A stretch of DNA of 36,235 bases from an uncultured virus (IMG/VR IMGVR_UViG_3300033405_000010) (lineage: Duplodnaviria; Heunggongvirae; Uroviricota; Caudoviricetes). A program made the position numbers and the translations under genes. The notes below the pieces were generated by a model that was not told the origin of the DNA, made no database searches, and saw only the letters and a program-made list of their open reading frames with translations. Of this stretch, positions 7,791 to 36,044 are shown piece by piece. The stretch lies in the IMG/VR virus record IMGVR_UViG_3300033405_000010; one strand, written 5' to 3'. Every line of letters starts with the position of its first letter. Position 1 is the stretch's first letter.

Positions 7791-8543
7791 GTGTGGCAGA
7801 ACCTCGTCCGCGTGCGCCGCCGCGACGGCTCGGCGTACCTGGCGTGGGTCCTCCCGAAGTCCAATCCCCTTCCGCAGCAGGTGGAGACACTCCTACTGCA
7901 CGGTCGCAAGGGTCGGAAGAAGGTCGACCGGAACACCTACCTCGTCCAGGAAGGGGATGGCAGCGTCAGCCTCATCCTTCACCAGACGGACGTGGTCCAC
8001 TACTATCCCGACAAACTCGTACTGCGGACCGGGGGCTGGCACACGATGACGACCCGCGACCGCATCGAGCTGGGGCTCCGCCTCGCCCACATCGGCGGCA
8101 GCATCAGCACGACCGGTCGGGGGGTCGGCGGCCCCTGGCTCTACACCGCGACGGATGGGCAGAGGTTCCCGTTCGACGAGGGGCTCGCGCTCGACTACGC
8201 CGGTAAGGTCCTCAACGCGCGCCCTGGCGGTGAAAAGCCCGAGGACACTGCCATCTCCGAGTCCATCGAGCACTACCTGAAGCTGCTGCGGCGAAAGCTC
8301 ATCGACGTCTCCTGGGACCCTGGCACGGACGAGACGCGGTGGACCGGCGACCTGAAGGAGGCCATCGACCGGGATATGTTCCCATACTCGCTCATCATGC
8401 AGGCGATGGAGGACACCGGCTACCGGACGGACTTCTACGGCGACATCCTCCAGGACCCCAACAAGCGCGGTCAGTTCGACGACACGTTCGTCCGCGCGGT
8501 GCGGCGGTACCTGCGGAAGCACATGCTGAGCTTCGCGCACTGA
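7791..8543 (+). CDS. LVRVRRxDG-leader protein carrying a phage-type LHxT...TGGW.T.TT domain
   Basis: N-terminus MWQNLVRVRRRDGSAYLAWVLPKSNP; LHQTDVV..LRTGGWHTMTTRDRI. Confidence 0.8.
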   Translation: MWQNLVRVRRRDGSAYLAWVLPKSNPLPQQVETLLLHGRKGRKKVDRNTYLVQEGDGSVSLILHQTDVVHYYPDKLVLRTGGWHTMTTRDRIELGLRLAHIGGSISTTGRGVGGPWLYTATDGQRFPFDEGLALDYAGKVLNARPGGEKPEDTAISESIEHYLKLLRRKLIDVSWDPGTDETRWTGDLKEAIDRDMFPYSLIMQAMEDTGYRTDFYGDILQDPNKRGQFDDTFVRAVRRYLRKHMLSFAH

Positions 8544-8544
8544 G

Positions 8545-8618
8545 CGGTTCCGCCGGGATTTGAACCCGGACCACGCGGCTGACAACCGCGCATCCTAACC
8601 GGGTTGGACCACGGAACC
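8545..8618 (-). tRNA. trnD: tRNA-Asp(GTC)
   Basis: GGTTCCG/CGGAACC, G73; CGCGG-TT GTC AG-CCGCG. Confidence 0.9.
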
Positions 8619-8624
8619 ATGAGA

Positions 8625-8698
8625 TGCTCCCCGTGGGATTCGAACCCACACACCCCTCGCCGAGAACGAGGTGCGCTTACCGGTTACGCCAGAGGAGC
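8625..8698 (-). tRNA. trnE: tRNA-Glu(CTC)
   Basis: GCTCCTC/GGGGAGC; CCTCG-TT CTC GG-CGAGG. Confidence 0.9.
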
Positions 8699-8745
8699 GG
8701 ACCTATCTCCGGGTCCGCTCGGCCGCTCACGATAGCCGACTGTAG

Positions 8746-8816
8746 TCCGGCCGGCAGGATTCGAACCTGCATGGCTCCGGTCTACAGCCGGGCGCGTCCC
8801 CATCCGCCACGGCCGG
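8746..8816 (-). tRNA. trnY: tRNA-Tyr(GTA), archaeal type
   Basis: CCGGCCG/CGGCCGG (C1:G72), CT GTA GA loop, short variable loop. Confidence 0.9.
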
Positions 8817-8844
8817 ATTGTCATGCGAGCCTTCGAGCCTCCGA

Positions 8845-8917
8845 TGGGCCCGCGGGGATTCGAACCCCGACCTCGCAGGTTAAGGGCCTGGTGCGCTACC
8901 GTTGACGCCACGGGCCC
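8845..8917 (-). tRNA. trnK: tRNA-Lys(CTT), C33
   Basis: GGGCCCG/CGGGCCC; CAGG-CC CTT AA-CCTG; T-loop TTCGAAT. Confidence 0.88.
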
Positions 8918-8950
8918 ATTTCACCTCTGAAGTGGATGAGCGCCGCTGGG

Positions 8951-8960
8951 ATTTAATACT
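8951..8960. promoter_or_regulatory. TATA-like element between divergent tRNA clusters
   Basis: ATTTAATACT, an AT island in GC-rich DNA, about 35 nt from the tRNA-Lys 5' end. Confidence 0.5.
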
Positions 8961-9070
8961 AGTCCCTGCATGGGAAACATACCATGAAGCTCACGCGCCT
9001 TCAGCCACCGCGACCCCTGTCGCGGTCTGGCCGCTCATCGCCGGGATGGCGATAGCGACTCAGGCCGCGA

Positions 9071-9155
9071 GGGCGCGTGGCACAATCCGGTAATGCGGCG
9101 GTCCCGAAAACCGCTCTTCCTCTGGAAGGTGCAGGTTCGAATCCTGCCGCGCCCG
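9071..9155 (+). tRNA. trnS: tRNA-Ser(CGA), C33
   Basis: GGGCGCG/CGCGCCC, G73; GCGGT-CC CGA AA-ACCGC; long variable arm CTTCC-TCT-GGAAG. Confidence 0.88.
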
Positions 9156-9170
9156 CTCAGCATCCGCTTC

Positions 9171-9244
9171 GGGGTCGTCGTCTAACTCGGCTAGGACATC
9201 GGTCTCCAGAACCGCGAATGGGCGTTCGAATCGCTCCGACCCCA
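9171..9244 (+). tRNA. trnW: tRNA-Trp(CCA), intronless
   Basis: GGGGTCG/CGACCCC; CGGT-CT CCA GA-ACCG. Confidence 0.88.
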
Positions 9245-9256
9245 TCCGCACCACGC

Positions 9257-9349
9257 GGGCCTTTGGTGTAACTTGGTAGCACCCGTCGCTTGGGACTGTC
9301 GGAGACAGCAAGAGACGATGAGGTCCGGGTTCAAATCCTGGGAGGCCCA
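9257..9349 (+). tRNA. trnP: tRNA-Pro(TGG) with 20-nt BHB intron at 37/38 (9295-9314)
   Basis: CGTCG/CGATG anticodon stem; central helix CTTG/CAAG flanked by 3-nt bulges GGA and AGA; inner hairpin CTGTC-GGA-GACAG. Confidence 0.9.
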
Positions 9350-9360
9350 TGCGGCGACGG

Positions 9361-9630
9361 ATGGGCGAAGACTCCTGGGACCCAACGATTCCCCGGTCGA
9401 AGGGGACAGTGCCCTTCGAAAAGGGCGCTCTGGGCGAGGTCATTCTCACAGACGGACCGCGCGTCATCATCTGCGCGAACTGCGGAATGACGATTACTGG
9501 ACCGGTCTTCCATCTCAAGCCGGAGACCTATTCGGTCGAGTACGGCGGCTGGGTCTTCTACATCGAGCGCCACATCGGAGTGGCGTGTGGCTGCGCCGCG
9601 AAGCTCGGACTGATGAGCGGCGGATTTTAA
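9361..9630 (+). CDS. small Cys-containing hypothetical protein inside the tRNA array
   Basis: Fills the gap between tRNAs; CANC...H..ACGC. Start may be 9349 or 9361. Confidence 0.6.
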   Translation: MGEDSWDPTIPRSKGTVPFEKGALGEVILTDGPRVIICANCGMTITGPVFHLKPETYSVEYGGWVFYIERHIGVACGCAAKLGLMSGGF

Positions 9631-9637
9631 TAGTAAA
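9625..9637 (+). promoter_or_regulatory. TATA-like element upstream of the second + strand tRNA cluster
   Basis: TTTTAATAGTAAA in a GC-rich context. Confidence 0.45.
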
Positions 9638-9740
9638 GCGTGTATGGGCACCGCGATGACGCGCGAGGACCGTCGGCGAAGTAGTTTGGGCCCGCTCCTC
9701 CTGCGTCGGCTACGGTAAGAACCGGGCGCCTCGGGCGTTC

Positions 9741-9828
9741 GGTGCTGTGGCGGAATCAGGTAATCGCACCTGCCTTAGAAGCAGGCGTGGGGTCAGCCCG
9801 CGTAGAGGTTCAAATCCTCTCAGCACCA
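9741..9828 (+). tRNA. trnL: tRNA-Leu(TAG)
   Basis: GGTGCTG/CAGCACC, A73; CCTGC-CT TAG AA-GCAGG; long variable arm. Confidence 0.9.
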
Positions 9829-9831
9829 CTT

Positions 9832-9909
9832 GGGCTCGTAGCGTAGCCTGGACATCGCGTCAGGTTGCGAACCTGAAGGTCGCGGGTTCAAATCCCGCCG
9901 AGCCCGCCA
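9832..9909 (+). tRNA. trnR: tRNA-Arg(GCG), encoded CCA
   Basis: GGGCTCG/CGAGCCC G CCA; TCAGG-TT GCG AA-CCTGA; the GCG anticodon is the archaeal pattern. Confidence 0.92.
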
Positions 9910-9910
9910 T

Positions 9911-9986
9911 GCGCCCGTCGCCTAACCTGGACATGGCGCCACGCTTCGAACGTGGAACGATGCGGGTTCAAATCCTGCCGGGCGCG
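9911..9986 (+). tRNA. trnR: tRNA-Arg(TCG)
   Basis: GCGCCCG/CGGGCGC; CCACG-CT TCG AA-CGTGG. Confidence 0.9.
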
Positions 9987-9995
9987 CTCCTCATC

Positions 9996-10079
9996 GGTGG
10001 GCTGGCACAGCGGCAACTGCGGGGGCCCCAAGAGCCCCTGGGCGTAGGTCCTTCGTCGGTTCGAATCCGGCGCCCACCA
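9996..10079 (+). tRNA. trnL: tRNA-Leu(CAA), C33
   Basis: GGTGGGC/GCCCACC, A73; GGGGC-CC CAA GA-GCCCC; long variable region. Confidence 0.88.
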
Positions 10080-10083
10080 CTAT

Positions 10084-10169
10084 GGAGGGATGGCCCAACC
10101 CGGTACGGCGCGGCGGTGCTAACGCCGTCTTGCGAAAGCAAGTTGGGGGTTCGAATCCCCCTCCCTCCG
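10084..10169 (+). tRNA. trnS: tRNA-Ser(GCT)
   Basis: GGAGGGA/TCCCTCC, G73; CGGCG-GT GCT AA-CGCCG; variable arm CTTGC-GAAA-GCAAG. Confidence 0.9.
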
Positions 10170-10170
10170 G

Positions 10171-10731
10171 TCACTTGCGACCGGCATATCGAAGCCCGAG
10201 GCGCGCCCGACTGCTCGCGGTGTGAGCCCCGTTGCTGGGAAGCAGGAAGGGGCGGATGATGTGCACGCGGACGCCGGGCGCGAAGCCGAGTCGGAAGTCG
10301 TGCTGCCAGAGTCGCAGGCCCAGGTCGAGGTCCTCGAACAGGACGTCCAAGCGAAATCCACCGACCGCGTCGAAGGCCGCTCGCGTGACCGCGATGAACG
10401 GCCCGATGGTGAACGGGTAGCGGAAGATGCGTGGAATCATGTTGGCCCAGTAGAGGCCAAGGATGGTGTACGGGCGCTTCGCAAAAGGCGTGAACCACTC
10501 CGCGGTCCAGTAATCCGCTCGGGATGGGTCGAGCTTCGAGAGGTCCCCGACAGCGATGGTATCCACGTCGATGAACACGAGGACGTCTCCGGTGGCCTTC
10601 TCCGCGCCCAGGTTCCGGGCGCGCGCCACACCACCGGGCGCCCGCTCGATGATGAGTTGGTCGTATCCCTTAAGGCTGGACGTATCGAAGTGCTGTCCGC
10701 GGCGCGCGGGCACGACCACACTGACCGTCAC
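10171..10731 (-). CDS. GT2 family glycosyltransferase
   Basis: VSVVVPA...GVARARNLGAEKATGDVLVFIDVD...FDAVGGF...FEDLDLGLR; GTG start overlaps the upstream TGA. Confidence 0.85.
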   Translation of the reverse strand: MTVSVVVPARRGQHFDTSSLKGYDQLIIERAPGGVARARNLGAEKATGDVLVFIDVDTIAVGDLSKLDPSRADYWTAEWFTPFAKRPYTILGLYWANMIPRIFRYPFTIGPFIAVTRAAFDAVGGFRLDVLFEDLDLGLRLWQHDFRLGFAPGVRVHIIRPFLLPSNGAHTASSRARLGLRYAGRK

Positions 10732-11267
10732 TTCCGTATCTCCGCCAGTTTGGTCTCGTGGACGATGTTCCAGCGATACCCCGATGCGATGAGCGCGTTG
10801 AGAACGGGAAGGCGCTCGCCCCAGTTGAAATCGTCCACAACGAGCCACCCGCCGGGCTTCAGCACGCGGTAGCCCTCCAGGATGTCGAAGAGGACGTTCA
10901 GGTACTCGTGCGAGCCGTCGATGAAGACCAATCGAAAGCGGTCGTCATCCAGGTACGGGAAGGCGTCCTTCGACTTCTTCCGCAGGACCGTGGTCTGCTC
11001 GAACCGTCCCAGGGACCGCAGGTTGGCCTCGAACGTCTCGTACGTGTTCCGCTCGGGCAGGTCCTCGCCGCCCAGGAACGGGTCGATGCACGTCACCTCT
11101 GCCCCGTCCTCGGTCAGGATGGCGGTCGAAAGCCCGCAGAAGGAGCCCACCTCCAGGATGGGCCCGCCCATCGGTCGCGTCTCCGCGCACCGCCTTCGCA
11201 GGTGAAGGAGGTCCTGGTCAAACATCCACCCCTCGATGGAGGGGTAGATGGCATGGGCGGTTCCCAT
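10728..11267 (-). CDS. class I SAM-dependent methyltransferase (Methyltransf_24-like)
   Basis: ILEVGSFCGLST, CIDPF, LVFIDGSHEY, LKPGGWLVVDD. Confidence 0.88.
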   Translation of the reverse strand: MGTAHAIYPSIEGWMFDQDLLHLRRRCAETRPMGGPILEVGSFCGLSTAILTEDGAEVTCIDPFLGGEDLPERNTYETFEANLRSLGRFEQTTVLRKKSKDAFPYLDDDRFRLVFIDGSHEYLNVLFDILEGYRVLKPGGWLVVDDFNWGERLPVLNALIASGYRWNIVHETKLAEIRK

Positions 11268-11268
11268 G

Positions 11269-13375: not shown

Positions 13376-13401
13376 TCGGAGTTGCCGGACGTCATCGGGT
13401 C

Positions 13402-13410
13402 TACTTAAAC
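13402..13410 (-). promoter_or_regulatory. TATA box for the tfb operon
   Basis: GTTTAAGTA about 30 nt upstream of ATG 13375. Confidence 0.55.
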
Positions 13411-13419
13411 GCTGCGTGA

Positions 13420-13441
13420 GGGAAGAAGAGGGGGGAAAGGG
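13420..13441 (-). terminator. polypyrimidine tract, possible archaeal-type terminator
   Basis: CCCTTTCCCCCCTCTTCTTCCC just downstream of the 13470 stop. Confidence 0.3.
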
Positions 13442-13469
13442 TTAGTCCAGAGCGTGCCGCACGGCCCGT

Positions 13470-17136: not shown

Positions 17137-17904
17137 TCACGGGGACCTGGTCGCGGCCGTCCGAACGAGGCGCACGTTGTCCCTGGGGAACGGCAGGTCG
17201 TCGATTACGTGCAGGAAGACGTAGGCCGCGTAGATGACCTCATCGCGGTCGAAATACGTCTCGTTCTCTTTCTCGATGTACGCCCTGCCACGGTCCTTGG
17301 CGGCCCTCTCGACGCGGTCGGCGAACTCGCTCGGCGAGGTGTCGTACTCGATGCTGTCGGCGAGGTGGCGGCCGTCGGTCCAGTCCCCATAGAGGACGAT
17401 GTCGATGTCGCAGAGACCGGCGCGACCGCAGCCTGCCGTCCAAGCCCCAACCATGTCCTTGGGGTTCTTGTGGTGGTACAACTCGGTGGAACCCCAGAAG
17501 CCGTGACCGCCGGTGATTTTCTGACCGGCCAACCAAATCTCGGCGACACGCGCCTCGTCCGAATCGGGATAGGCTTCCTTGTCGACCTCTGTGACGCACC
17601 GAACGATGGGGACCTCCCTGGGAGGCGCTTTCGGGGTCGGGGCCCGTGGATTCTGCCGGTACTCGCTGGGTAAGCGAAGGGCTTCCTGGGCCCGCAGGAG
17701 AAGAAGCTGTGCCCGAAGGGCTCGCCCCACCATCACCGTGCCGATGGTGCGGTTGTGCGCGATTTTGATGAGCATACCACGAGCGTGGCCGATTTCCTGG
17801 CGCGCTTCGTCGTAGGCGCGCTTGGTATCGGGGTCGAGCGGGTTCCCGACGACCTGTGCGAGGTAGCTCGACCCATCCTTTCGTCGGATGCGGACGAGCT
17901 TCAT
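17137..17904 (-). CDS. LVRVRRKDG-leader protein with NP-delimited modules
   Basis: MKLVRIRRKDGSSYLAQVVGNP; internal RQNP. Confidence 0.8.
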   Translation of the reverse strand: MKLVRIRRKDGSSYLAQVVGNPLDPDTKRAYDEARQEIGHARGMLIKIAHNRTIGTVMVGRALRAQLLLLRAQEALRLPSEYRQNPRAPTPKAPPREVPIVRCVTEVDKEAYPDSDEARVAEIWLAGQKITGGHGFWGSTELYHHKNPKDMVGAWTAGCGRAGLCDIDIVLYGDWTDGRHLADSIEYDTSPSEFADRVERAAKDRGRAYIEKENETYFDRDEVIYAAYVFLHVIDDLPFPRDNVRLVRTAATRSP

Positions 17905-18464
17905 CGGCGCCGGAGCATCCTGGCCGCGGCGTCGACCGACCGCTCCAGCCGCCGCATGTACTGTAGGAGCCCGGCCATTTCCATCGACTCCGGGTCGCCC
18001 GTCGCCACAACCATCCGGGCTGGGGACAGGGCCTCCGCGGCCATCTCGATTTGCGACCGCGCTCGGTCGAGGTGGCCCGCGGCTTCACGCCGGAGGACGA
18101 TGGGGTTCTTCAGGTGACGCGGGTTCTCTTTCCATTCCTTGAGGGCGATGTAGGCGTACTTGAGAACGAGCTTCTTGAACCATCCCGGGAGGCGTTCGAA
18201 GTCCATGCGTGCCACCTCTTTGCTATGCCAGGATGCACCCCCCCGTGCGTACGCTACCCGAGTCGAGGCCATCTCTTGGCGGTCGCCGAGGTTGCTCAGG
18301 TTCCAGTAGGCACGGGCAAACTCCGCCGGTCCTATCGCCACATGGCCGCGTCGGACAACAAGACCATAGGGCAGCGCCTTCCGAACCGTTTGCCGCGGGT
18401 TGGGCTCGACGAGGAGCGCCAGGTACTTGGTGCCGTCCTTGCGGCGGACGCGGACGAGTTTCAT
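17901..18464 (-). CDS. LVRVRRKDG-leader protein
   Basis: MKLVRVRRKDGTKYLALLVEPNP; internal KENP and LKNP. Confidence 0.8.
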   Translation of the reverse strand: MKLVRVRRKDGTKYLALLVEPNPRQTVRKALPYGLVVRRGHVAIGPAEFARAYWNLSNLGDRQEMASTRVAYARGGASWHSKEVARMDFERLPGWFKKLVLKYAYIALKEWKENPRHLKNPIVLRREAAGHLDRARSQIEMAAEALSPARMVVATGDPESMEMAGLLQYMRRLERSVDAAARMLRRR

Positions 18465-18862
18465 CACGCGCTGACCCCTCCTATCTTGTAGTACGCTTTC
18501 AGCGCCAGCCGCGCTCGCGTCATCCCCTCCAGAATCTCGTCCCTGACATCGGACGGAAGGTCCCTTTCCAGGAGCGACTGACGGAGCAGGAACATCTCAC
18601 GAAGCGCCTTCCTGATTGCCTGTGGCGTCCGGCGCCATGCCGCCAGGTACTCCGGGGGAACCTTGAACCCGCGCGCGTACCCCTTCATGGACATCCGCGG
18701 GTTGAATCGGAGGTCCGCCTTGTACTCCTTGACCCCGGCCCGCTTCAGCGCCATCAGCCGCTGCTGAAGGCTCGGCTCGCGGACGCTCGTCCGCGGATTC
18801 GGCCCGATGACCTCGGCCAGATAGCGACTCCCGTCCTTCCGTCGCACTCGTACCAGTTTCAT
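18464..18862 (-). CDS. LVRVRRKDG-leader protein
   Basis: MKLVRVRRKDGSRYLAEVIGPNP; internal RFNP. Confidence 0.8.
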   Translation of the reverse strand: MKLVRVRRKDGSRYLAEVIGPNPRTSVREPSLQQRLMALKRAGVKEYKADLRFNPRMSMKGYARGFKVPPEYLAAWRRTPQAIRKALREMFLLRQSLLERDLPSDVRDEILEGMTRARLALKAYYKIGGVSA

Positions 18863-18864
18863 GT

Positions 18865-19422
18865 CTACTCCAATACCATCGGGATGACCTGCACGCGGCT
18901 GGCGCCCGTCGAGAAGAGGTTCCACCGCTTGTTCCTTGCCCGGTCCGCCGCCTCCTTTGCCAACCGCTCCGAACGGAACGCCCGGTTTCGGAAGACCTTG
19001 GAGGCCAAGCCCTGGAACACCACGAGGTATATCGTCGGCCCGCCCGGGTTCCGCTTCGGGTAGCCTTTGAGCGTGGTCGTGCAGACCGCCCAGGGATTCA
19101 CCGGGCTGCCCGACCGCTTGACCTGCATTACACAGGACTCGAACTTGCGGCGGAAGGAGGCAGTGGCGATTTGACGGTAGTGCGGGTTGTACTGGGTCAC
19201 GTCCTCGTGACGCGCGAGCATCCTCTCCTCGCGCTTCGACGGGGTTCCGTAGTAAGAGACGAAGTTGGGACCCTGGTCCGCGACGCGCAGGCCCCGCGAC
19301 TCCAGGACCTTGGCGGCCTTCTCGACGTCCGAGGTCTTGTCGTAGAAGATGTAGCGGACGACCCGGCCGTTCTTGATGGAACTGAAACCCGTCCGGGGAG
19401 AGGGCATGTGACCGATGGTCAT
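18865..19422 (-). CDS. basic modular protein with internal NP motifs and a KFxxCV...VK...AVC domain
   Basis: ATG 9 nt after motif copy 3; QYNP, PVNP, KRNP. Confidence 0.75.
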   Translation of the reverse strand: MTIGHMPSPRTGFSSIKNGRVVRYIFYDKTSDVEKAAKVLESRGLRVADQGPNFVSYYGTPSKREERMLARHEDVTQYNPHYRQIATASFRRKFESCVMQVKRSGSPVNPWAVCTTTLKGYPKRNPGGPTIYLVVFQGLASKVFRNRAFRSERLAKEAADRARNKRWNLFSTGASRVQVIPMVLE

Positions 19423-19431
19423 CCCTGGGAC

Positions 19432-19457
19432 CACCCGGCCCAGGCTATTTGAGACCT
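19432..19457 (-). promoter_or_regulatory. conserved 26-bp putative late promoter, copy 3
   Basis: AGGTCTCAAATA-GCCTGG-GCCGGGTG, followed by 9 nt and the ATG at 19422. Confidence 0.75.
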
Positions 19458-21570: not shown

Positions 21571-21571
21571 G

Positions 21572-26810: not shown

Positions 26811-26812
26811 CT

Positions 26813-27881: not shown

Positions 27882-28874
27882 TCAGTGCACTTCCGCAATC
27901 ACGTCGATGGCCGACTCGGCCGCCTCCGCATCGTCCGCCGCAGTCGCCGCGTAGATGTCCGCGAACGACGAGTAGGTCGCCGCCAGGTCGGACTCGCTCG
28001 TCGCGGCAGCGAGGTCCGTGAACGACGCGCTGAGGCTGTCGGCGCTCGCAATCGCAGGGTCGCCCGAAGCCATCGTCCGCAGCGCCGTGCTCGCGTCGTC
28101 GGCGCTGGTCGCGCCGCTGTCCACGTCCGTGATGGCCTTGGCCTGAGCCCCGGCCTGCCCGGCCGCTCCGGGACTGAAGTCGTCCCCGACCTCGACGTCG
28201 TCCGGGTCCTCGGGCGGGTTGCCCTTTCCGTTCTTGGCCGAGTAGACTTTGCTCCACACGTAGGCACGGTAAGCGAAGGCGCCGACGCCGATGGCCGCTA
28301 GGCCACCCGCGAAGAGAGCGAACGCCCAGCCGACCTCCTTCAGGGTGTTGTCGAGGGTCTGACCCGGGGTAGGAGCCGACGGTCCGCAGGCCGCGGCCAT
28401 CTGCGACTGCACCGTCGCGGCCTGGCTCTGGAGGGACTGGATTTCCGCCTGCTGCTGGGAGGTGTACGAACCCCCGACCTTGTAGGCCGCGAGGTTGACG
28501 TTGTTGATTTGCGTGTAGAGGGATGCGAGTTCGCTGGTCAGTTGGTTGCAGGCCGCGGGGTTGTTCGCGGGCGGGTTGAGGGCCCCGGCGACCGTGCCGA
28601 CGAGGTAGTAGAGGACGACCCCGACCACTCCGACCACGGCGGCGACCCCTGCGGCGATGAGGACCGTCTTGCCGTGCTTCTCGAACCATGTGCCCTTGGT
28701 CGCCTTCTGCGCTGCCGCGGTGGTCTTCGTCTTGACCGTCTGGTACGTCGCACGAACGCGCTGACGCACCGTCTTCTTCTTGGCCGGGTTCGTACGGACG
28801 CGGAGGACCGGAACGTAGACGACCTTGTTGTTCACCAGTCGCGGAACCTTCTTCGGCCTCACTTTCACGTACAT
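27882..28874 (-). CDS. two-TM coiled-coil protein with basic N-terminus ending RTNP and acidic Ala-rich tail
   Basis: VPVLRVRTNP; TM VLIAAGVAAVVGVVGVVLYYL; Cys-closed coiled-coil hairpin; second TM. Confidence 0.8.
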   Translation of the reverse strand: MYVKVRPKKVPRLVNNKVVYVPVLRVRTNPAKKKTVRQRVRATYQTVKTKTTAAAQKATKGTWFEKHGKTVLIAAGVAAVVGVVGVVLYYLVGTVAGALNPPANNPAACNQLTSELASLYTQINNVNLAAYKVGGSYTSQQQAEIQSLQSQAATVQSQMAAACGPSAPTPGQTLDNTLKEVGWAFALFAGGLAAIGVGAFAYRAYVWSKVYSAKNGKGNPPEDPDDVEVGDDFSPGAAGQAGAQAKAITDVDSGATSADDASTALRTMASGDPAIASADSLSASFTDLAAATSESDLAATYSSFADIYAATAADDAEAAESAIDVIAEVH

Positions 28875-29851
28875 GAGCACCCGTTGTCAACTCCTGTGTT
28901 GTCGCAACACATATCGACGCTCGCGGCCACGACGATTTGAGTCTGAATGGACGTCCCCGATACGGTCACGGTGATGGTCCCTACCTGACCACCGTCCACC
29001 TCCGAGCACTGCGAGCCCTGCCCGTTGCCGCCGCAGAGATTCGAGATGCAGTTGGTGTACGGCGGGTTGCCTCCGTTCTGGAAGGACGTCGGGACGGTGC
29101 CCATCTGCACGGGAACGAGAGCGTAGCCGTCGGAGTTGGTCGTTCCGGAGGTCTCAGAAAGGCTCGCCTGCCCGTTAATCGTGTAGCTCAGGAGGACGCC
29201 CGCCATCGGGAATCCGTACTGGTCAAGCACGCGGACGTTCGTCGCCGCGCTGCCGCCCTGGTAGCTGAAGTTGCATGGCCCCGCGCTCGTGCAGTCGAAG
29301 ACCCAGTAGCACTCGGTGTAGCTGTAGTTCGCCGTGGTGGGAATCGTGATGGAACTGTCCTGCGCCGTGAGGCTCGTTGCCACCGGGACGTAGCAGGCAC
29401 CCTGGTTGCAGGAGAAATCCTGCGAGCCGAGGCAGCCACAGTCGCTCTGGCAGGAGGCTCCGTTCGCGCAGGTGCAGGTTCCCGCGCAGCCCGTCCCCTC
29501 GACGCAGTAGCCGTTCTGGCAGGTCTCTCCCGCCATGCACTCGCTGTTGTTCGTGCAGGCGACGCCGGCACTTATGCAGGTGCCTCCCGAGCACTGCTCA
29601 CCCGAAGGGCACTGGGAATCGCTCGTGCACCCACCGCCGCCCCCGCCTCCCCCGTAGGTCTTGATGAGGTAGTAGACGCCAACGCCCGCCGCCGCGGCGA
29701 CCGCGCCGCCGATGGCGAGGGGAATCCATACCGACGTCTTCTTGGGGGGCGCCGGGGCAGGAGCCGCCGGGTTCGTTCGATGCCGAACGACGGGGATGGG
29801 TCGAACCCGAAGGGGCGCTACCCTGGCTCGAACGGGGGCCGGACCACTCAT
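28865..29851 (-). CDS. membrane-anchored Cys-rich protein with Ig-like (Big_1-type) domain
   Basis: PLRVRPIPVVRHRTNP, TM, repeats CTSDSQCPSGEQC..G.C, VLDQYGFPMAGV...TTNSDGYA. Confidence 0.82.
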   Translation of the reverse strand: MSGPAPVRARVAPLRVRPIPVVRHRTNPAAPAPAPPKKTSVWIPLAIGGAVAAAAGVGVYYLIKTYGGGGGGGGCTSDSQCPSGEQCSGGTCISAGVACTNNSECMAGETCQNGYCVEGTGCAGTCTCANGASCQSDCGCLGSQDFSCNQGACYVPVATSLTAQDSSITIPTTANYSYTECYWVFDCTSAGPCNFSYQGGSAATNVRVLDQYGFPMAGVLLSYTINGQASLSETSGTTNSDGYALVPVQMGTVPTSFQNGGNPPYTNCISNLCGGNGQGSQCSEVDGGQVGTITVTVSGTSIQTQIVVAASVDMCCDNTGVDNGCSCT

Positions 29852-29859: not shown

Positions 29860-30486
29860 TCAGACCGATGTCGGCCCGTTTCTGCTGCTCGGCCCGTTCG
29901 TCTTCGGCCCGTTCGAGGAAGCGAGGGAGACCGTCACCTGGACGGTGTTGCTCGAAGCGCCGGCCGACGTGTCCTGGGCCACGATGTTGTACGTTGTCAT
30001 CATGTTCGCGGGCAGAGACGACGTCAGCAGGAGACGTGGGTTGGGGACGGGCCCGTTCGGGTTCAGGCCGAAGATGGTGCTGGCGTTGAAGTTCCCGTTC
30101 TGGTCGAACGTCCCGGCTGCGATGGTCGTGGTCGAGCCCATGTTCGTGCCGGAAATGACCGCCGAGTTGATGACGACCGCGTCGCCGGGCTTGCCGTTCG
30201 TCACCGCGATGGGCACCGTGATGCCCGGCATGACGTTGGCCAGGCCCGTGTCACCGTTGACGGTCAGCGTCGGGCCAGGCGAGCCCGTGCCGGTAACGAT
30301 GGACCCGTTGCCGCTCGCGGGCTGCTTTCGAGTGAGGTAGTAGGCGAGGCCGATGACGGCGGCGGCGGCGAGCCCAAGCCCCAGTGCGATGCCCAACTGC
30401 TTCTTCTTCTTCGCGGCCATCGGGTTCGGCTTGATGCCTAGTTTCGACGGCTGGAGGCGGATTTTCAGCTTCGGTTTGGTCGCCAT
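29860..30486 (-). CDS. membrane-anchored Ig-like beta protein
   Basis: KLKIRLQP..IKPNP, KKKK, TM, Thr/Asn-rich beta domain ending SNTVQVTV. Confidence 0.8.
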   Translation of the reverse strand: MATKPKLKIRLQPSKLGIKPNPMAAKKKKQLGIALGLGLAAAAVIGLAYYLTRKQPASGNGSIVTGTGSPGPTLTVNGDTGLANVMPGITVPIAVTNGKPGDAVVINSAVISGTNMGSTTTIAAGTFDQNGNFNASTIFGLNPNGPVPNPRLLLTSSLPANMMTTYNIVAQDTSAGASSNTVQVTVSLASSNGPKTNGPSSRNGPTSV

Positions 30487-30488
30487 TT

Positions 30489-31691
30489 TCACACCATGTT
30501 CACTCGGTTCTTGTAGTAGGTGAAACCGTAGTCCTGGCCGTTCCCGTTGTCACCCGTCGGGTAACGGTCACTGCGGATGGTCCCGCCACGGCCCGCGGCA
30601 GCAATCGCGGGGAAGGCCGTCTCGCGCGCCGGGAAAGCCTTGCCGCAGCAGGCTTTGTTCCCGCCCGCGCCGTACTGCCGGACCAACGGGCCCGGACCGG
30701 TCATCGTGACGTTGTCCATGATGGAGAAGGCGAGACCGCCGCCGCCCGCACCGTACTGGCGCACGCGCGGACCGGGGCCCGTCATCGTCACGTTGTCCAT
30801 GATGGTGTAGACCCTCGGGCGCGTGGGGAGGGGACGCGAGCCGATGACCGGCATGGCGATGCCGGTACCGCCCGCGCCGTACTGGGCGACGCGAGGGCCG
30901 GGCCCGGTCATGGTCACGTTGTCCATGATGGTGTAGACCTTCGGTCGGGCGTAGAGCGGGCGCGCGCCAATCACGGGCAGGACTACCTGCATGTTGTTTC
31001 CTCCGATGTTCCCAAACTGAGCGCCGTAGTCACCGATGCGAGACGGGACGGCGGGCGCGGCGTAGGTCCTTCCGGACTGGTAGATTCGCTGACCGGTCCC
31101 TCCACCGCCCGCTCCGTAGCTCGGCATGGGAGCGCGGGGCGAGACGATGCCGGAGCCGGTGCGCGGACCCCAGTAACCGTACTGCAACGGAATCTTGGTC
31201 CCTGGGATGACGGGCGCGGCCCTCGCGGGCCACACGCCATGCCCGACCGTTCCGATTTCCTTGAGTTGGGGAATCGTCGGCATCATCTGCGGAAGCGGCT
31301 TCGTCACGTACGGACCCCATGTTTCGAGGCCGCCGGCGCCAACCTTTCCGCCGTAGGCGGGAGGGGACTGGACGGCTGGGACGGGCTCGATTCCGGGGGG
31401 CGTCGAGGCCCATGCCGAGGGGCCGGACGACTGGGGCACCTGTTGGCCCGCGACGGTGGCCGACGGGTTGACTCCTACGTTCTGCGTCGAGGTCGAGCCC
31501 GGCATGACGGGCGAGGCTGGCGACCCGCCGCCCGAGGACTGCTTCGTGACGACGTAGAGCACAGTGGCCCCGACAGCTACGGCTCCGAGCCCGCCCACCA
31601 CGATGGCCAGGTCCCGAGACGAGGGGTTCGGCTTCGAAGACTTTGCCGCGATGGCACGGACCTTGAGGGGTGCTACCTTCACGGGGGGCAT
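30489..31691 (-). CDS. membrane-anchored Gly/Pro-rich repeat protein
   Basis: ATG 9 nt after motif copy 4; PLKVRAI..KPNP, TM, three IMDNVTMTGPGP.V.QYGAGG repeats. Confidence 0.8.
   Translation of the reverse strand: MPPVKVAPLKVRAIAAKSSKPNPSSRDLAIVVGGLGAVAVGATVLYVVTKQSSGGGSPASPVMPGSTSTQNVGVNPSATVAGQQVPQSSGPSAWASTPPGIEPVPAVQSPPAYGGKVGAGGLETWGPYVTKPLPQMMPTIPQLKEIGTVGHGVWPARAAPVIPGTKIPLQYGYWGPRTGSGIVSPRAPMPSYGAGGGGTGQRIYQSGRTYAAPAVPSRIGDYGAQFGNIGGNNMQVVLPVIGARPLYARPKVYTIMDNVTMTGPGPRVAQYGAGGTGIAMPVIGSRPLPTRPRVYTIMDNVTMTGPGPRVRQYGAGGGGLAFSIMDNVTMTGPGPLVRQYGAGGNKACCGKAFPARETAFPAIAAAGRGGTIRSDRYPTGDNGNGQDYGFTYYKNRVNMV
30661..30980 (-). repeat. intragenic repeats: 3x IMDNVTMTGPGPxVxQYGAGG and 2x PVIGxRPLxxRPxVYT
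   Basis: Protein-level repeats with synonymous differences; GTTGTCCATGAT occurs three times on the + strand. Confidence 0.85.
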
Positions 31692-31700
31692 CCCTAGAGC

Positions 31701-31726
31701 CACCCGGCTCAGCCTATTTGAGCCCT
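31701..31726 (-). promoter_or_regulatory. conserved 26-bp putative late promoter, copy 4
   Basis: AGGGCTCAAATA-GGCTGA-GCCGGGTG, followed by 9 nt and the ATG at 31691. Confidence 0.75.
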
Positions 31727-31736
31727 AAGTCGAGCG

Positions 31737-31919
31737 TCACCACTTCCCGATGGGGCAGTGCTGGTTCGGCATCCGCGTTTTGAGGTTCATCCAGCACTTG
31801 CAGATGTGGCACTGCAACTGCCCGGCGGGGTAGACAATCGCGTTCTCGCAGTCGAGGCAGATGTTGAACCGTTGCTGCGCGTTGGACGACTGACCGGGGA
31901 AGTGCAGCGTGAAGCTCAT
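31737..31919 (-). CDS. small Cys-rich protein (R..IC..C...C..C.C...KT....CP..KW; DUF6171-like pattern)
   Basis: RFNICLDC..QCHICKCWMNLKTRMPNQHCPIGKW. Confidence 0.75.
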   Translation of the reverse strand: MSFTLHFPGQSSNAQQRFNICLDCENAIVYPAGQLQCHICKCWMNLKTRMPNQHCPIGKW

Positions 31920-31920
31920 G

Positions 31921-32244
31921 TCACTGCTCGATGACGGTATTCTGCGTCAGTAGAGAATACCTTCGGATGACGTCCTGGCCCAAGGCCGTCACCGTCGAGG
32001 GCACGAGGAGGAACTGAACCGGCATCGCCGGACCGCCGTGGAAGGAGACCATAACGGTCGCCATCGGAATCATCGTCGGCCCGTTCGCCGTCTCGATGGG
32101 GACCTCCTGGTACGGCTGGATGTTGAGTTCGGCGGCGATGTCCTGTGGGAGCAGCGACCACGAGGCGAGCGTGTCGAGCGCGAAGTCCAGTGTCACGTTC
32201 CCGTAGTCGGTGATGAGCGTGGCACGCTCCGTGAAGGGCTGCAC
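31921..32244 (-). CDS. retropepsin-like (clan AA) aspartic protease homolog with DTL in place of DTG
   Basis: FALDTLASWSLLP..IA..L, ETANG flap, ALGQD; 107 aa. Confidence 0.75.
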   Translation of the reverse strand: MQPFTERATLITDYGNVTLDFALDTLASWSLLPQDIAAELNIQPYQEVPIETANGPTMIPMATVMVSFHGGPAMPVQFLLVPSTVTALGQDVIRRYSLLTQNTVIEQ

Positions 32245-32601
32245 CTACGCTACCTTCCTGGGTGCGATGGACTTGAGGTATTCGACGGCGGGCGGTGGCG
32301 GGTAGCTCGGAGGCTGCGGGACCCGACGCGTGAGCATCGGAGGGACGCCGGCCGTGCCGGGGGTGGGGAAGACGTGGTCCATGAGACCGCGCCGTGCGAG
32401 ACGGTAGTTCTCGCGGGAGTCACGGTAGTGGATGTTGCGGCAGTGCATCTCCATGTCGTACTTCATCTCCTCGATGTCGCGGCCGACGGAGACGAAGTGG
32501 CAGCCGGGGAACGTGCACGGACTCCCCATCTTCCGCTCGCGGAACGGGGCGTCAAGTTTCACCGGCATCGGGCGCACGAATCCGGGCTCTTCAATCGGCA
32601 T
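32245..32601 (-). CDS. C2H2-like zinc finger protein
   Basis: CTFPGC...MEMHCRNIH; TAATG overlap. Confidence 0.7.
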   Translation of the reverse strand: MPIEEPGFVRPMPVKLDAPFRERKMGSPCTFPGCHFVSVGRDIEEMKYDMEMHCRNIHYRDSRENYRLARRGLMDHVFPTPGTAGVPPMLTRRVPQPPSYPPPPAVEYLKSIAPRKVA

Positions 32602-32993
32602 TACGACCCCACCCACGCCATGCCGACCGGCATAGCGTGGTACCTAAAGTCTTCTCCGGCGCGATGCGGACGCCCCTCTTTGCACGCCGGGCAGCCGGAG
32701 GCCGCACCGACCTTGGCGACATCCTCCCGGAGGTCCTTGTAGGGGTACCTCCGCTCGTTCATCTTGGAGCCGCGGAAGATTCCCTTCAACTGCTCGGGCG
32801 TGTGCTTGTGGGCGTGGAACTTCAGCGAGCCCTTGGCGTGAACGTGACGGTGCTTGTGCTCGAACTGAATCATCCCCTTGCCCTTCACAATCATCCAGTG
32901 CTTGTGGGGATGGTCGTGGGTCGTCGCGGGGTTCTCCATGACCTCGGCCAGGTACTTCGTCCCGTCCTTGCGGACCACACGGACCAGCGTCAT
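32601..32993 (-). CDS. LVRVRRKDG-leader protein, His-rich
   Basis: MTLVRVVRKDGTKYLAEVMENP; HDHPHKH, HKHRHVH, HAHKH, CPAC..PH. Confidence 0.8.
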   Translation of the reverse strand: MTLVRVVRKDGTKYLAEVMENPATTHDHPHKHWMIVKGKGMIQFEHKHRHVHAKGSLKFHAHKHTPEQLKGIFRGSKMNERRYPYKDLREDVAKVGAASGCPACKEGRPHRAGEDFRYHAMPVGMAWVGS

Positions 32994-34471
32994 GCCCTCA
33001 CCACGTTGTAGCCGTAGGCGAGCATCGCCGGTGGGCTCACGTTAGACGGCGAGCCGGAGGTCGAGTGGCAAGTCCCCGAGCCGCCCTTACCGGTCTGGCA
33101 GGAGCAGCCCGCTGGGCACCCGGCGTCCTTCCCGCAGCCGTACTGGGTGCACGAGTCGGGGAGCGTGCAGCCGCCGGCGACCGAGACCGTCACCTGGTTC
33201 GAGGTCGTGCCTGAGGTGTTGTCCTTGACGTAGAAGGTGAGGTTCTCGGCGGTGTACTGCTGGTCCACGCACGCCTTGAAGCTCGCCACGCCGCTGGAGT
33301 TCGCGTTCGTGCTGCCCCAGTACGTGCCGCCCGTGTCGTAGACCTCGATGTTGTCGCCCGAGTCGGCGCCGGTGACGCTCACGGTGAAGCAGCCCGAACA
33401 GCTTGAGCCCGAAGGGGTCAACGACGAGGGCGAGACCGTGATGGTCGGAGTCGCCGCCGTGACAACCTTCGTGCAGCAGCAGTTGGTGCAGGTGTAGCCG
33501 GTCGTGCAGTCGTCCACGGTGCGGCAGTACGCCTCGGGCTCGGTGTTGGGGCATCCCGACGGGATGGCGGATTCGCAGCAGTTCATGCCGGGAATCTGCT
33601 TCGTGCAGTTCGGGCACTTCCCGCTGACGAAGCCCGTGTTCGGCGACAGGCACTGGGCCGTGCAGCAGTCCGGGTATTGGCCGTCCGGGTACCGCGTCGT
33701 GCCCGAAGGACAGGAGCTTCCGGCCGCGGCGTAGACATCGTCGGTGCTTCCACAACACGCACCTCCGCTGATGCAGGTACCCGACGTGCACGTCCCCTTC
33801 GTGCAGGACGGCGAGCAAGCGCCGCAGCTTGGCGCGGTCGACATGCAGCAGGTCAGGTTGTTCGGGTCCCGATAGGGGTAGCCCGGCGGGCAGGTGTCCG
33901 CGTAGACGTTAATCATCTCCTCGCCCGGTGGGCAGTTGACCTTGGTCACGCACATTCCGGGCGACTGACAGACCTGACCCGAGGGGCAGGGCCCGTCGTA
34001 GCAGTTCGGACCCCCGCACGCCGTGCAGCCGCATTTCCCGTTGATGCAGGTCTGCCCAGCGAGGGAGCAGGTTCCGTTAGGGCAGGAGGACGAGCAGGCA
34101 CCGCACGCACCGCCGGAGCAGACGCCGTTTTGGCAGGTGCCCGAGGTACAGGTGCCGTTGGGGCATGTAGAAGAGCAGGGCGACGTGGACGTGCATCCCG
34201 TGGATGGCATACAGCAGCCGGTGCTGCTCGGGTCGGCCACGTAGCCCGACGGGCAGATGCCGCTCGTCGTCATCGGCATGTCCGGCGATTCGCACGCCGT
34301 GCCTCCGGGCTTCGACGTCAGGTACCACACGAGGACGCCGATGCCGATTCCGGCGGCCGTGACGCCGCCGATGATGGCGACGTTCCCAGCAGCCGAGGGG
34401 TTCTTCTTCTGGGGCCGCGGCCGGAGTACCGGTCTAACGAGGAGTTTCGGGGACTTTCTCGGAGGGACCAT
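32990..34471 (-). CDS. membrane-anchored, extremely Cys-rich protein with Ig-like domain
   Basis: PKLLVRPVLRPRPQKKNP, TM, many CP.G.C and CC repeats, beta domain ending SNQVTVSV. Confidence 0.85.
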   Translation of the reverse strand: MVPPRKSPKLLVRPVLRPRPQKKNPSAAGNVAIIGGVTAAGIGIGVLVWYLTSKPGGTACESPDMPMTTSGICPSGYVADPSSTGCCMPSTGCTSTSPCSSTCPNGTCTSGTCQNGVCSGGACGACSSSCPNGTCSLAGQTCINGKCGCTACGGPNCYDGPCPSGQVCQSPGMCVTKVNCPPGEEMINVYADTCPPGYPYRDPNNLTCCMSTAPSCGACSPSCTKGTCTSGTCISGGACCGSTDDVYAAAGSSCPSGTTRYPDGQYPDCCTAQCLSPNTGFVSGKCPNCTKQIPGMNCCESAIPSGCPNTEPEAYCRTVDDCTTGYTCTNCCCTKVVTAATPTITVSPSSLTPSGSSCSGCFTVSVTGADSGDNIEVYDTGGTYWGSTNANSSGVASFKACVDQQYTAENLTFYVKDNTSGTTSNQVTVSVAGGCTLPDSCTQYGCGKDAGCPAGCSCQTGKGGSGTCHSTSGSPSNVSPPAMLAYGYNVVRA

Positions 34472-34487
34472 CTGCTATCCCTCCCAT

Positions 34488-34784
34488 CTACTCGCGGTGC
34501 AGGTGCGCCCCGATGCACACTGGACTGTTGATTCCGTGACGGTGGGCCGCGTGACAGATGCGGTATAGCCCTCCGGGGCACTTCAGCGTCCGCTTCTGGC
34601 GGTAGCGGGCGAGCGCGTTCCGAACGTGCGCGGCATCGTTGATGGGGTACTTGCGCTGGAGCGGGCACGCGAACGAACTCGTCCGCAGCCTCTGACGCTT
34701 CGCGTAGGAGAGGCGCGGGTTCTCTTCGATGACCTCGGCGAGGTAGGACGTTCCGTCTTTGCGGCGCACTCGTACTAGCTGCAT
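34488..34784 (-). CDS. LVRVRRKDG-leader protein with DUF6582-like domain
   Basis: MQLVRVRRKDGTSYLAEVIEENP, then RQRL..SSFA.P..RKYPINDAAHVRNALAR. Confidence 0.8.
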   Translation of the reverse strand: MQLVRVRRKDGTSYLAEVIEENPRLSYAKRQRLRTSSFACPLQRKYPINDAAHVRNALARYRQKRTLKCPGGLYRICHAAHRHGINSPVCIGAHLHRE

Positions 34785-34785
34785 T

Positions 34786-34986
34786 TCATGCCCCCTTGCC
34801 CAGCAGGTATCCGAAGAGCAATCCGACTGCTCCGACCGCGCCGACCTGCCACAGCGCGTACTCTCTCCGCGTGACGGCCCCGAACGCGGCGTGCTCCAGC
34901 CGCTGGACACGGTATCCCGGATTGCTGCTCACGACCTGCGCGAGGTAGCTCGTTCCATCCTTTCGGCGTACGCGGACTAGCTGCAT
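34786..34986 (-). CDS. LVRVRRKDG-leader protein with C-terminal TM
   Basis: MQLVRVRRKDGTSYLAQVVSSNP...ALWQVGAVGAVGLLFGYLLGK. Confidence 0.8.
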   Translation of the reverse strand: MQLVRVRRKDGTSYLAQVVSSNPGYRVQRLEHAAFGAVTRREYALWQVGAVGAVGLLFGYLLGKGA

Positions 34987-35243
34987 CGGAACATCCCCTT
35001 GTGCATGGCCCTCAGACTGCGAATGTCACCCCTCAGGGCCTTGAGTTCAGGGCCGGCGCGGCGAATTGCGCCCGCGCTCAGCATGACGGCAATCCGATTC
35101 CAACGGTGCTCCATCGTCCTGACCAAGCGCATCTCCGCGCACTCGTGGCGTCGCATCGCGGAGGGCTTGATGTAGGGATTGTCCGCGACCATTTCCGCCA
35201 TGTAGGAGGAGCCGTCCTTCCTGCGGACTCGGACGACCTTCAT
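34977..35243 (-). CDS. LVRVRRKDG-leader protein, basic helical
   Basis: MKVVRVRRKDGSSYMAEMVADNP; ATG 9 nt after motif copy 5. Confidence 0.8.
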   Translation of the reverse strand: MKVVRVRRKDGSSYMAEMVADNPYIKPSAMRRHECAEMRLVRTMEHRWNRIAVMLSAGAIRRAGPELKALRGDIRSLRAMHKGMFRCS

Positions 35244-35252
35244 CGCTTTCCC

Positions 35253-35278
35253 CACCCGGCTCTCGGCTTATGAGACCT
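35253..35278 (-). promoter_or_regulatory. conserved 26-bp putative late promoter, copy 5
   Basis: AGGTCTCATAAG-CCGAGA-GCCGGGTG, followed by 9 nt and the ATG at 35243. Confidence 0.72.
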
Positions 35279-35772
35279 CACACGACCCCGGAGCGCGAGT
35301 ATCCGTTGCCCATGTTGGGGTTGGTGATTTGCGCGTGGGGGCCGAACTCCAGGGCCGGCGAGGCAAGTTGTCCGTAGCCCAATTCGGCGAGCGAGACCAC
35401 GCCGTTCGCCAAGATTCCGGCACCGACCCCGGCGAGGACCGGCATGACGTATCGCTGCTTGGCGCGGAAGTAGTACGCAACTCCGAGGATGGTCCCGCCG
35501 ATTGCGATGGTGATGGCGTCGCTGACGACCGCCGGTAGCCACACGGGTGGCAGGCCACTGCCCGAGGCGCCGGTCGACCCGACGATGAGATTGCCGAGGT
35601 CGCCAATCGGGACGAACCCCCATGCGAAGTAGCCGACCGCGGCTCCCACCGCTCCGAGGAGGATGGGGAACCACTTCGAGTCGACGAACCCGGGGTTCTC
35701 CTCGATGTCGTCGAACGTGTCGAGGTCGTCCGTGTCAAAGCGGCTTCTCAGTTCTGCAAGTACGTCGCTCAT
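35278..35772 (-). CDS. three-TM membrane protein with acidic N-terminus ending EENP
   Basis: Three hydrophobic Gly/Ala-rich helices; ATGA overlap. Confidence 0.78.
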   Translation of the reverse strand: MSDVLAELRSRFDTDDLDTFDDIEENPGFVDSKWFPILLGAVGAAVGYFAWGFVPIGDLGNLIVGSTGASGSGLPPVWLPAVVSDAITIAIGGTILGVAYYFRAKQRYVMPVLAGVGAGILANGVVSLAELGYGQLASPALEFGPHAQITNPNMGNGYSRSGVV

Positions 35773-36044
35773 CCGTGCACCAACGCCGATTTCGGCGCGA
35801 AGAGGCCGCCGAGCCCCTTCTTCCAGGGGCCGAAAGAAACCCGAACGATGGTCCCGCCCTTGAGGGCGTGGAGAACGCTCCGCGTGACGTCGACCTGGTA
35901 CTTCTTGCCGCCCGGGGCGAACCCGGTACCGCGCATCATGTCGATGACAATCCGTCTGTGCTGCGGTCCCGTCATCGGGTTCGCTTCGACTAGTTCGGCG
36001 AGGTAGCTCGACCCGTCTCTCCGTCGGATTCTCACGAGCTTCAC
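35769..36044 (-). CDS. LVRVRRKDG-leader protein
   Basis: GTG start overlaps the upstream TGA: (M)KLVRIRRRDGSSYLAELVEANP. Confidence 0.78.
   Translation of the reverse strand: MKLVRIRRRDGSSYLAELVEANPMTGPQHRRIVIDMMRGTGFAPGGKKYQVDVTRSVLHALKGGTIVRVSFGPWKKGLGGLFAPKSALVHG

Follow-up and report, generated by a model that had tools for sequence, protein, structure and literature searches.

Why should nine otherwise unrelated genes of a single genetic element begin with one and the same short peptide? The question is raised by a 36,235-nt stretch of DNA from an uncultured virus (IMG/VR record IMGVR_UViG_3300033405_000010), hereafter the window, which belongs to a contig of 98,235 nt and derives from a probable, if unproven, archaeal virus-like element of an undescribed kind. 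Using a six-frame regular-expression scan, translation and alignment, we found in this window nine open reading frames (ORFs) with a common N-terminal leader of consensus MKLVRVRRKDGSSYLAEVVxxNP, which is 22 residues long and rich in arginine; past approximately residue 23 the nine translated sequences are unrelated. A local hidden Markov model (HMM) was made from 15 leaders; applied to every stop-to-stop frame, it returned exactly nine matches in the window (49.7-62.8 bits, independent E-values from 1e-18 to 1.3e-14), the next-best match reaching at most 2.1 bits. The original prediction, which had placed the leader on nine genes at the same starts, is thus borne out by scan, translation, alignment and HMM alike. 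Nine copies are far beyond chance: this is a genuine, undescribed feature on a secure statistical footing.

In the alignment of the nine leaders, which has no internal gap up to residue 19, V4, R5, R8, D10, G11, Y14, A16 and the terminal Asn-Pro (NP below) are invariant. The start codon, ATG in seven copies and GTG in those at 7791 and 36044, occupies a conserved position in all nine, of which eight lie on the minus strand and one on the plus strand. When the nine copies are compared by codon position, 18 of the 19 columns vary at the third base, 7 at the second and 14 at the first, and the codon differences totalled over the 36 leader pairs comprise 252 synonymous and 207 non-synonymous changes. 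Because third positions vary in nearly every column, selection acts on the leader peptide and not on the DNA, as had been argued earlier from the copies at 34784 and 34986; these indeed share identical first 16 residues encoded with eight synonymous codon differences. That the repeat is instead a DNA or RNA element, or that the true starts lie downstream and the leader is never translated, is hardly credible in view of this third-position variation, of the synonymous differences, of the conserved start position and of the preservation of the peptide in 25 cluster representatives from other contigs. Start-stop overlaps, for example ATGA at 17904, fit translation from the starts of the leader genes. 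That conservation concerns a repeat or recombination site in the DNA was likewise rejected, since the codons vary.

The cargoes that follow the leader are diverse, and their earlier description (a DUF6582 domain, a His-rich stretch, a hydrophobic tail and a GGWHTMTT stretch) agrees with Pfam, PHROGs and the translations. The plus-strand gene at 7791..8543 (250 aa, GTG start; leader including NP, 7791-7868; HMM 49.7 bits) has three extra residues (V-W-Q) before the leader and matches PHROG_19389 (E 6.8e-6) over the GGWHTMTT stretch of its cargo; its ortholog on a related contig, L002, is also leader-bearing. The remaining eight genes are encoded on the minus strand. Three of them contain further NP dipeptides: 17137..17904 (255 aa; leader 17839-17904; NP again at residues 85 and 147; 56.8 bits), 17901..18464 (187 aa; leader 18396-18464; NP again at residues 114 and 120; 54.2 bits) and 18464..18862 (132 aa; leader 18794-18862; NP again at residue 54; 55.9 bits). 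The gene at 32601..32993 (130 aa; leader 32928-32993; 54.5 bits) carries the His-rich cargo (HDHPHKHW...HKHRHVH...HAHKH), which is modelled as one long beta-hairpin spanning residues 23-53, followed by a CPxC-containing tail, and could bind metal. The DUF6582 cargo belongs to 34488..34784 (98 aa; leader 34716-34784; 62.8 bits), where Pfam family PF20223 is matched at E 4.4e-9 and residues 25-64 match positions 4-43 of the PHROG_16160 profile, so that the PHROG relatives of this cargo start approximately at the position of NP. The gene at 34786..34986 (66 aa; leader 34918-34986; 57.5 bits) encodes a hydrophobic C-terminal tail and has orthologs in P0023 and L001:9486, L001 being a second related contig, on which 34977..35243 (88 aa; leader 35175-35243; 59.6 bits) likewise has an ortholog, L001:9319. 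The ninth gene, 35769..36044 (91 aa; leader 35976-36044; 59.5 bits), is the other one with a GTG start.

Is the leader confined to this element? The HMM found five matches in L001 and three full matches plus a truncated one in L002, and a word-indexed search returned 12 leader proteins, seven from the window and five from other contigs. A profile search of 1.84 billion cluster representatives retrieved 33 proteins at E<=0.001, of which 25 are true members with the module starting at residue 1-6 of the protein (in one of them, P0028, the first strand is duplicated). P0012, from a contig of 1,192 nt, has the module towards the end of its 193 aa and without NP, and is probably a miscalled ORF. 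The other seven are non-members: the PAS proteins P0026 and P0034, the low-complexity repeats P0020 and P0035, and P0027, P0031 and P0033, which are long proteins matching over 10-12 positions only. HMM and profile search therefore agree that the leader is a strictly N-terminal module on unrelated cargoes. The members come from a few related Joint Genome Institute (JGI) contigs of 91,814, 29,497, 24,126/20,538, 10,352, 4,829 and 2,443 nt, and the leader-bearing relatives carry several leaders per contig. Scans of IMG/VR with the leader gave pattern matches, none of which was confirmed as a relative, and the species-representative genomes searched with the leader yielded no relative.

In the nine proteins no family of Pfam-A, PHROGs v4 or NCBIfam extends over leader residues 1-23, nor does any of these families cover the leader in 11 further leader proteins (10 database members plus L001:10001); PHROGs in particular hold no match to it. 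The motif strings of the leader were not found in the literature searched, and the writings on archaeal-virus propeptides, capsid targeting and retropepsins contain, in the portions available, no described counterpart. The opinion that this is not a described family can thus be maintained; apart from the low-complexity repeats and the three long proteins, the sole likeness outside the family is to PAS domains. P0026 and P0034 contain the word R-x-R-K-D-G-S-x-F-L-A-E-V inside the PAS fold, on strands that are presumably those named G-beta and H-beta. The likeness spans only some 12-18 residues (10-18 profile positions), no PAS hit occurs in the nine proteins and the rest of the fold (approximately 100 residues) is absent; PAS is a look-alike of the leader and not a relative.

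The PAS word is nevertheless informative, since its place within the PAS fold supports a hairpin conformation of the leader. We modelled the His-rich member (32601-32993) with AlphaFold2 (AF2) from an alignment of 20 rows. Leader residues 3-7 and 13-17 were modelled as strands, with mean predicted local distance difference test (pLDDT) values of 93 and 92, NP lying in a loop and the cargo after it. Residues from approximately 3 to 17 are thus predicted with confidence to form a beta-hairpin, the conformation around the DG turn that the original prediction had proposed. As read from the pairing pattern, hydrophobic residues occur on both faces of the hairpin, which in isolation should therefore need a partner surface; five basic residues are found within leader residues 2-9. 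The model resembles no solved fold, as only 8 of 48,161 chains reached Z>=2 in a fold search (best 2.9), and residues 1-26 of the leader had no usable match by features in the ESM Atlas, where the structure rows were generic hairpins below the bar for naming.

What, then, is the role of the dipeptide that closes the leader? NP is present in 27 of 27 family sequences, four to six residues past YLA (nine in one of them), and is the sole invariant feature downstream of the hairpin, 2-7 residues after it. Its flanks vary, the residue at +1 being R in 11 of the 27 and TH never following, and it is encoded by six different codon pairs. Over the whole window, NP falls at residue 10-35 in 16 of 49 proteins against 21 of 324 internal segments of 26 residues (P 4e-8), and in 7 of 40 when the nine hairpin proteins are left out (P 0.013). 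The four genes at 17137-19434, comprising three leader genes and a neighbour without the hairpin leader (18865..19434, minus strand, 189 aa, three NP), contain 11 NP where 1.2 are expected. (Three large proteins of 715, 364 and 954 aa, encoded at 19465-25464, have none against 3.9 expected; zero was also obtained in 80 of 5000 shuffles, and this post hoc, weak observation is not relied on).

Comparison with L002 adds a second line of evidence on NP. The nucleotide homology of 18865-19434 to L002 stops at window position 19044, directly past the codons of NP129-130, after which the C-terminal modules differ. In L002:692 (P0010), the ortholog of the gene starting at 18464, the segment between NP22 and NP114 is missing, with an 11-nt overlap at the junction. 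L002:976, the ortholog of the gene starting at 17904, has a truncated leader, MKLVRIRRKARPNP, in which NP is kept while the second strand and a helical domain are lost. In these three ortholog pairs, whose boundaries coincide with NP, the dipeptide behaves as a module junction.

The truncated leader of L002:976 resembles those of a group of membrane proteins in the window, which extend the pattern beyond the hairpin. Five neighbouring minus-strand genes encode a basic strand, [KP]L[KRLV][VI]R, then NP, then a membrane anchor: 27882..28880 (NP at residue 31), 28865..29851 (leader APLRVRP...TNP, NP at residue 27; weak Big_1 and Cys-rich repeat matches), 29860..30492 (KLKIR...PNP, NP at residue 23, kept in the ortholog L001:12848), 30489..31703 (PLKVR...PNP, NP at residue 26; kept in the ortholog L001:11605, with different flanks) and 32990..34471 (KLLVRP...KKNP, NP at residue 24). 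These five are probably paralogs. A sixth membrane protein, 35278..35772 (minus strand), has an acidic leader ending in EENP, with NP at residue 26 before the first hydrophobic helix, and EENP is kept in its ortholog L001:8796. Among eight membrane-protein leaders taken from the window and from L001, no residue other than L, N and P is fully conserved.

Such NP-ending leaders, standing directly before membrane anchors in six neighbouring proteins, could be taken to mean that machinery of the host or the element reads the leader as a non-classical membrane-insertion or export signal, with no part in particle assembly, and one of the hairpin cargoes is indeed a tail-anchored peptide. We give this explanation only a slight chance: the hairpin leader has no hydrophobic core after its RR pair, most of the nine cargoes, read by eye, are without a hydrophobic segment, and no known signal family was matched. 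A Tat or Sec signal was considered separately and rejected; what comes after RRKDG is SSYLAEVVxxNP, with a charged residue and no hydrophobic core, and the leader is therefore not Sec- or Tat-like.

To which kind of particle, if any, might the leader direct its cargo? In L001 the leader genes adjoin the gene of a 267-aa protein, the best conserved of the clade, with 81-82% identity among four contigs including that of the window. Its AF2 model is poor (pLDDT 52, predicted template modelling score 0.52), and the weak structural neighbours of this model are almost all jelly-roll capsid proteins: Foldseek placed P23-77 VP17 on top, with no match at E<=0.001, and the VIA matches included enterovirus VP1 (Z 5.7) and the capsid protein of SPV1 (Z 5.4). 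The nearest Atlas clusters of the protein are viral, and an IMG/VR scan with it returned pattern matches of which none was confirmed as a relative. We consider it a weak lead for a jelly-roll capsid protein. A homologue with 46% identity occurs on a 54-kb contig (L003) of a Thermoplasmata archaeon metagenome-assembled genome. The gene of a second protein of approximately 207 aa lies adjacent in both contigs (L001:5969-6592 and L001:7404-8207; L003:8588-9247 and 9998-10786), each protein showing 46% identity between them; these two genes are the best conserved between the leader clade and the Thermoplasmata contig, and the two products may, on weak fold evidence, be a pair of jelly-roll capsid proteins.

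A candidate for an enzyme that would act on the leader lies in the same cluster. The minus-strand gene 31921..32244 encodes a 107-aa homologue of retropepsin-like (clan AA) aspartic proteases, with PF13650 at 24.7 bits (cut-off 24.3), PF13975 at 27.2 bits (just below its cut-off of 28.2) and the NCBIfam model TIGR03698 at E 0.0046; precomputed PF13975 matches exist on P0037 and P0039, and the gene was present on all four related contigs that returned it. A PDB sequence search with this protein gave a sole match at E 0.74. From its sequence it is a candidate processing enzyme or a candidate receptor of the leader. A complex prediction with two copies of the protease and the leader, using a 45-residue leader alignment, scored 0.00 and informs neither way. 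Few enzymes cleave a bond that precedes proline, and proteases of the retroviral type belong to them. Small Cys/His zinc-finger-like proteins flank the gene (32245-32616 and 31737-31919, with another at 36041-36223, all on the minus strand); the order zinc finger, protease, zinc ribbon is kept in L001, and all three genes recur in L003.

A leader that is strictly N-terminal, whose hairpin calls for a partner and whose invariant NP adjoins unrelated cargoes fits a modular tag that one common partner reads and that is then separated. We tentatively favour, with somewhat less than even confidence, the reading that the leader is such an N-terminal module for docking or targeting, detached from its cargo at the NP junction. 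The module stands on at least nine unrelated small proteins in each genome; its hairpin would bind one common partner or assembly site, probably the virus particle during its formation or the particle membrane. At NP the tag would be separated from the cargo, with cleavage due either to a protease acting in trans or to the Asn itself, and the basic strand plus NP that precedes the membrane anchors may be a reduced form of the same signal. The original prediction, in which such a tag would load cargo, possibly for ejection, into a virion and be cut at NP, is right in its anatomy and plausible in its proposed mechanism.

The closest known parallel is the capsid targeting sequence (CTS) of phage T4. 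This peptide is borne by the internal proteins IPI-III and Alt and is removed at a defined site by the prohead protease gp21; its 10 N-terminal residues suffice for packaging, for which it is necessary and sufficient, and its cargoes are otherwise unrelated, fast-evolving small proteins of one virus (PMC9026906). The nine copies of the window reproduce one of its traits, a short N-terminal peptide common to unrelated proteins of one virus. Unlike the CTS, which has approximately 10 residues and no hairpin, the module of the window has 22 residues and ends in Asn-Pro; moreover, its context is archaeal and apparently non-tailed, and the sole protease candidate is retropepsin-like with the motif D-T-L-A. 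Precursors of ribosomally synthesized and post-translationally modified peptides (e.g. of the Nif11/NHLP type) also combine a conserved leader with variable cores, occur as paralogs in one locus and have their leader read by a shared partner and then removed. Here, by contrast, the leader is followed by a folded protein, 44-230 residues in length, and modification enzymes were not observed.

Several of the same observations can be accommodated by an arm that is never removed, and this constitutes the main rival. The leader would be retained for docking, oligomerisation or nucleic-acid binding, its hairpin and basic strands contacting the genome, a matrix or nucleoprotein layer, or each other, and NP would serve as a turn or hinge and not as a scissile bond, much as NP is a structural turn in the NPxY ligands of PTB domains. 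The cluster of basic residues at the start of the leader and the basic character of the membrane-protein leaders would suit such an arm, as would the need of the two-faced hairpin for a packing surface, the missing Gly in the canonical motif of the protease candidate and the tolerance of an internal NP by the conserved capsid-like protein. We regard it as a serious explanation, yet unlikely, because it is rare for a mere hinge or helix cap to preserve N as well as P throughout 27 sequences with variable neighbours, EENP closes an acidic leader too, NP is where module swaps stop, and none of the 25 members has the module inside the protein or at its C-terminus (P0012, without NP, being the sole exception).

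If NP is a scissile bond, the leader may also cleave itself, the side chain of Asn attacking its own peptide bond without any protease. Asn-Pro autoproteolytic sites are described for the periplasmic domain of RsgI, where the site lies in a turn between two strands, for reovirus mu1 and aquareovirus VP5 (Asn42-Pro43) and for the NPTH motif of FlhB/YscU (PMC10328401). The invariance of Asn-Pro amid variable flanks agrees with this, as does its separation of an N-terminal piece from the rest throughout the family, its modelled position in a loop between two strands, as reported for RsgI (PMC10328401), and the possibly inactive state of the protease candidate. We nonetheless deem self-cleavage improbable. 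In the known cases the site is within a conserved folded domain that activates the Asn, whereas the leader genes differ entirely in what follows NP and have no NPTH; a heat-driven chemistry is also unlikely as the DNA comes from peat metagenomes. The FlhB/YscU analogy drawn in the original prediction accordingly does not hold at the level of the motif, since neither NPTH nor a conserved fold around the site occurs in the 27 sequences.

A broader proposal is that NP constitutes an element-wide code, in which modules of many proteins are joined and released at Asn-Pro, the hairpin leader loads swappable cargo and the D-T-L-A protein is either an Xaa-Pro-cleaving enzyme or a catalytically silent receptor of the leader. 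This we consider rather unlikely as a whole.

Against the view of the leader as a removable tag, with its wider NP pattern, stand several facts. The D-T-L-A sequence is found in four of four clade members, with Leu replacing Gly, which departs from the catalytic D-T/S-G-A motif; since this Gly is missing, the candidate may be inactive and, by its sequence, may have an altered or silent active site. Its distant homologue in the Thermoplasmata contig (L003:12121-12657) has D-S-G-A at the aligned place and adjoins the capsid-like genes there, in a genome that gave no hairpin leader at E<=10; this argues that the enzyme is not specifically tied to the leader, even if an empty answer from a single, possibly incomplete genome shows little. 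Because the five membrane proteins look paralogous, the wider NP pattern rests on few independent families. Moreover, NP cannot suffice by itself, as it occurs internally in the consensus of the capsid-like protein (...FPNPAF...) and also in beta-helix and other proteins of the window. The 11-nt overlap at one deletion junction could mean that the repeated AACCCGCG by itself favours recombination at NP. Finally, the viral nature of the element rests on weak fold matches (none at E<=0.001 with Foldseek and Z of at most 5.7 with VIA, from a model with pLDDT 52), and binding to a common partner, cleavage at NP and the presence of leader proteins in virions are what we infer.

The rest of the window agrees with an archaeal setting. 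It has a G+C content of 64-68% and densely packed, mostly orphan genes, among which a TFIIB homologue (12332-13375; Pfam, and NCBIfam PRK00423 at E 3e-14) points to an archaeal host; no match to this protein was found by tblastn against phage records. A MoxR-like AAA_5 ATPase (25200-26852, minus strand; Pfam E 2.7e-15), which is extended at its N-terminus by 270 residues of unknown type, had only distant AAA matches in the same records, all below 60% identity and the nearest below 35%. Other recognisable features are a dual-specificity phosphatase, a RyR domain and a methyltransferase. ARAGORN identified 15 tRNA genes in two arrays (6470-6696 and 8544-10170) on both strands, 13 of them confirmed by Rfam, a number that is unusual for a non-tailed archaeal virus-like element. 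The original prediction had invoked an archaeal virion; its archaeal virus-like context is plausible given the TFIIB homologue, the 15 tRNA genes and the weak capsid candidate beside leader genes in a relative. The window DNA is present in six peat metagenome runs, of which two may be its source, and no RNA run was listed with it. In all, the leader is carried by a small clade of archaeal virus-like elements of roughly 90-100 kb in peat metagenomes.

Further observations concern other genes of the window. The 93-nt tRNA at 9257-9349 (plus strand; Rfam 40.8 bits) was predicted to have a four-base anticodon, 'tggg'; on visual inspection it resembles a tRNA-Pro(UGG) with an intron of approximately 19 nt after the anticodon, and introns directly after the anticodon are common in archaeal tRNA genes. 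Two beta-helix proteins (3189-4820 and 4805-6283, plus strand) are nearly identical over their first 45 or so residues (MSGFRPLPPQS.L.G.TAVIGKP...) and then diverge, forming a second shared N-terminal module of a kind typical of fibre or spike paralogs. The 715-aa protein encoded at 19465-21612 (minus strand) has a long acidic low-complexity region rich in Glu, Gly and Ser, which produces spurious matches to SD-repeat adhesins.

What does this leader mean for the biology of its bearers? Its kind is known from the T4 CTS, and the module itself is new. Few systems are known for how archaeal viruses select and process the proteins of their particles, and a compact, easily recognised tag on at least nine cargoes per genome, with a simpler cousin on membrane proteins, offers an experimental handle on this question. 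The leader also flags fast-evolving small proteins that may act on the host, and it defines a previously unannotated clade of elements of roughly 90-100 kb linked to Thermoplasmata-type archaea from peat. Were NP a cleavage code, the exchange of gene modules exactly at NP would be explained; and should such a code be combined with the loading of cargo, the leader, as a capsid-targeting and propeptide system, would be without known precedent among archaeal viruses and could be used directly to load foreign proteins.

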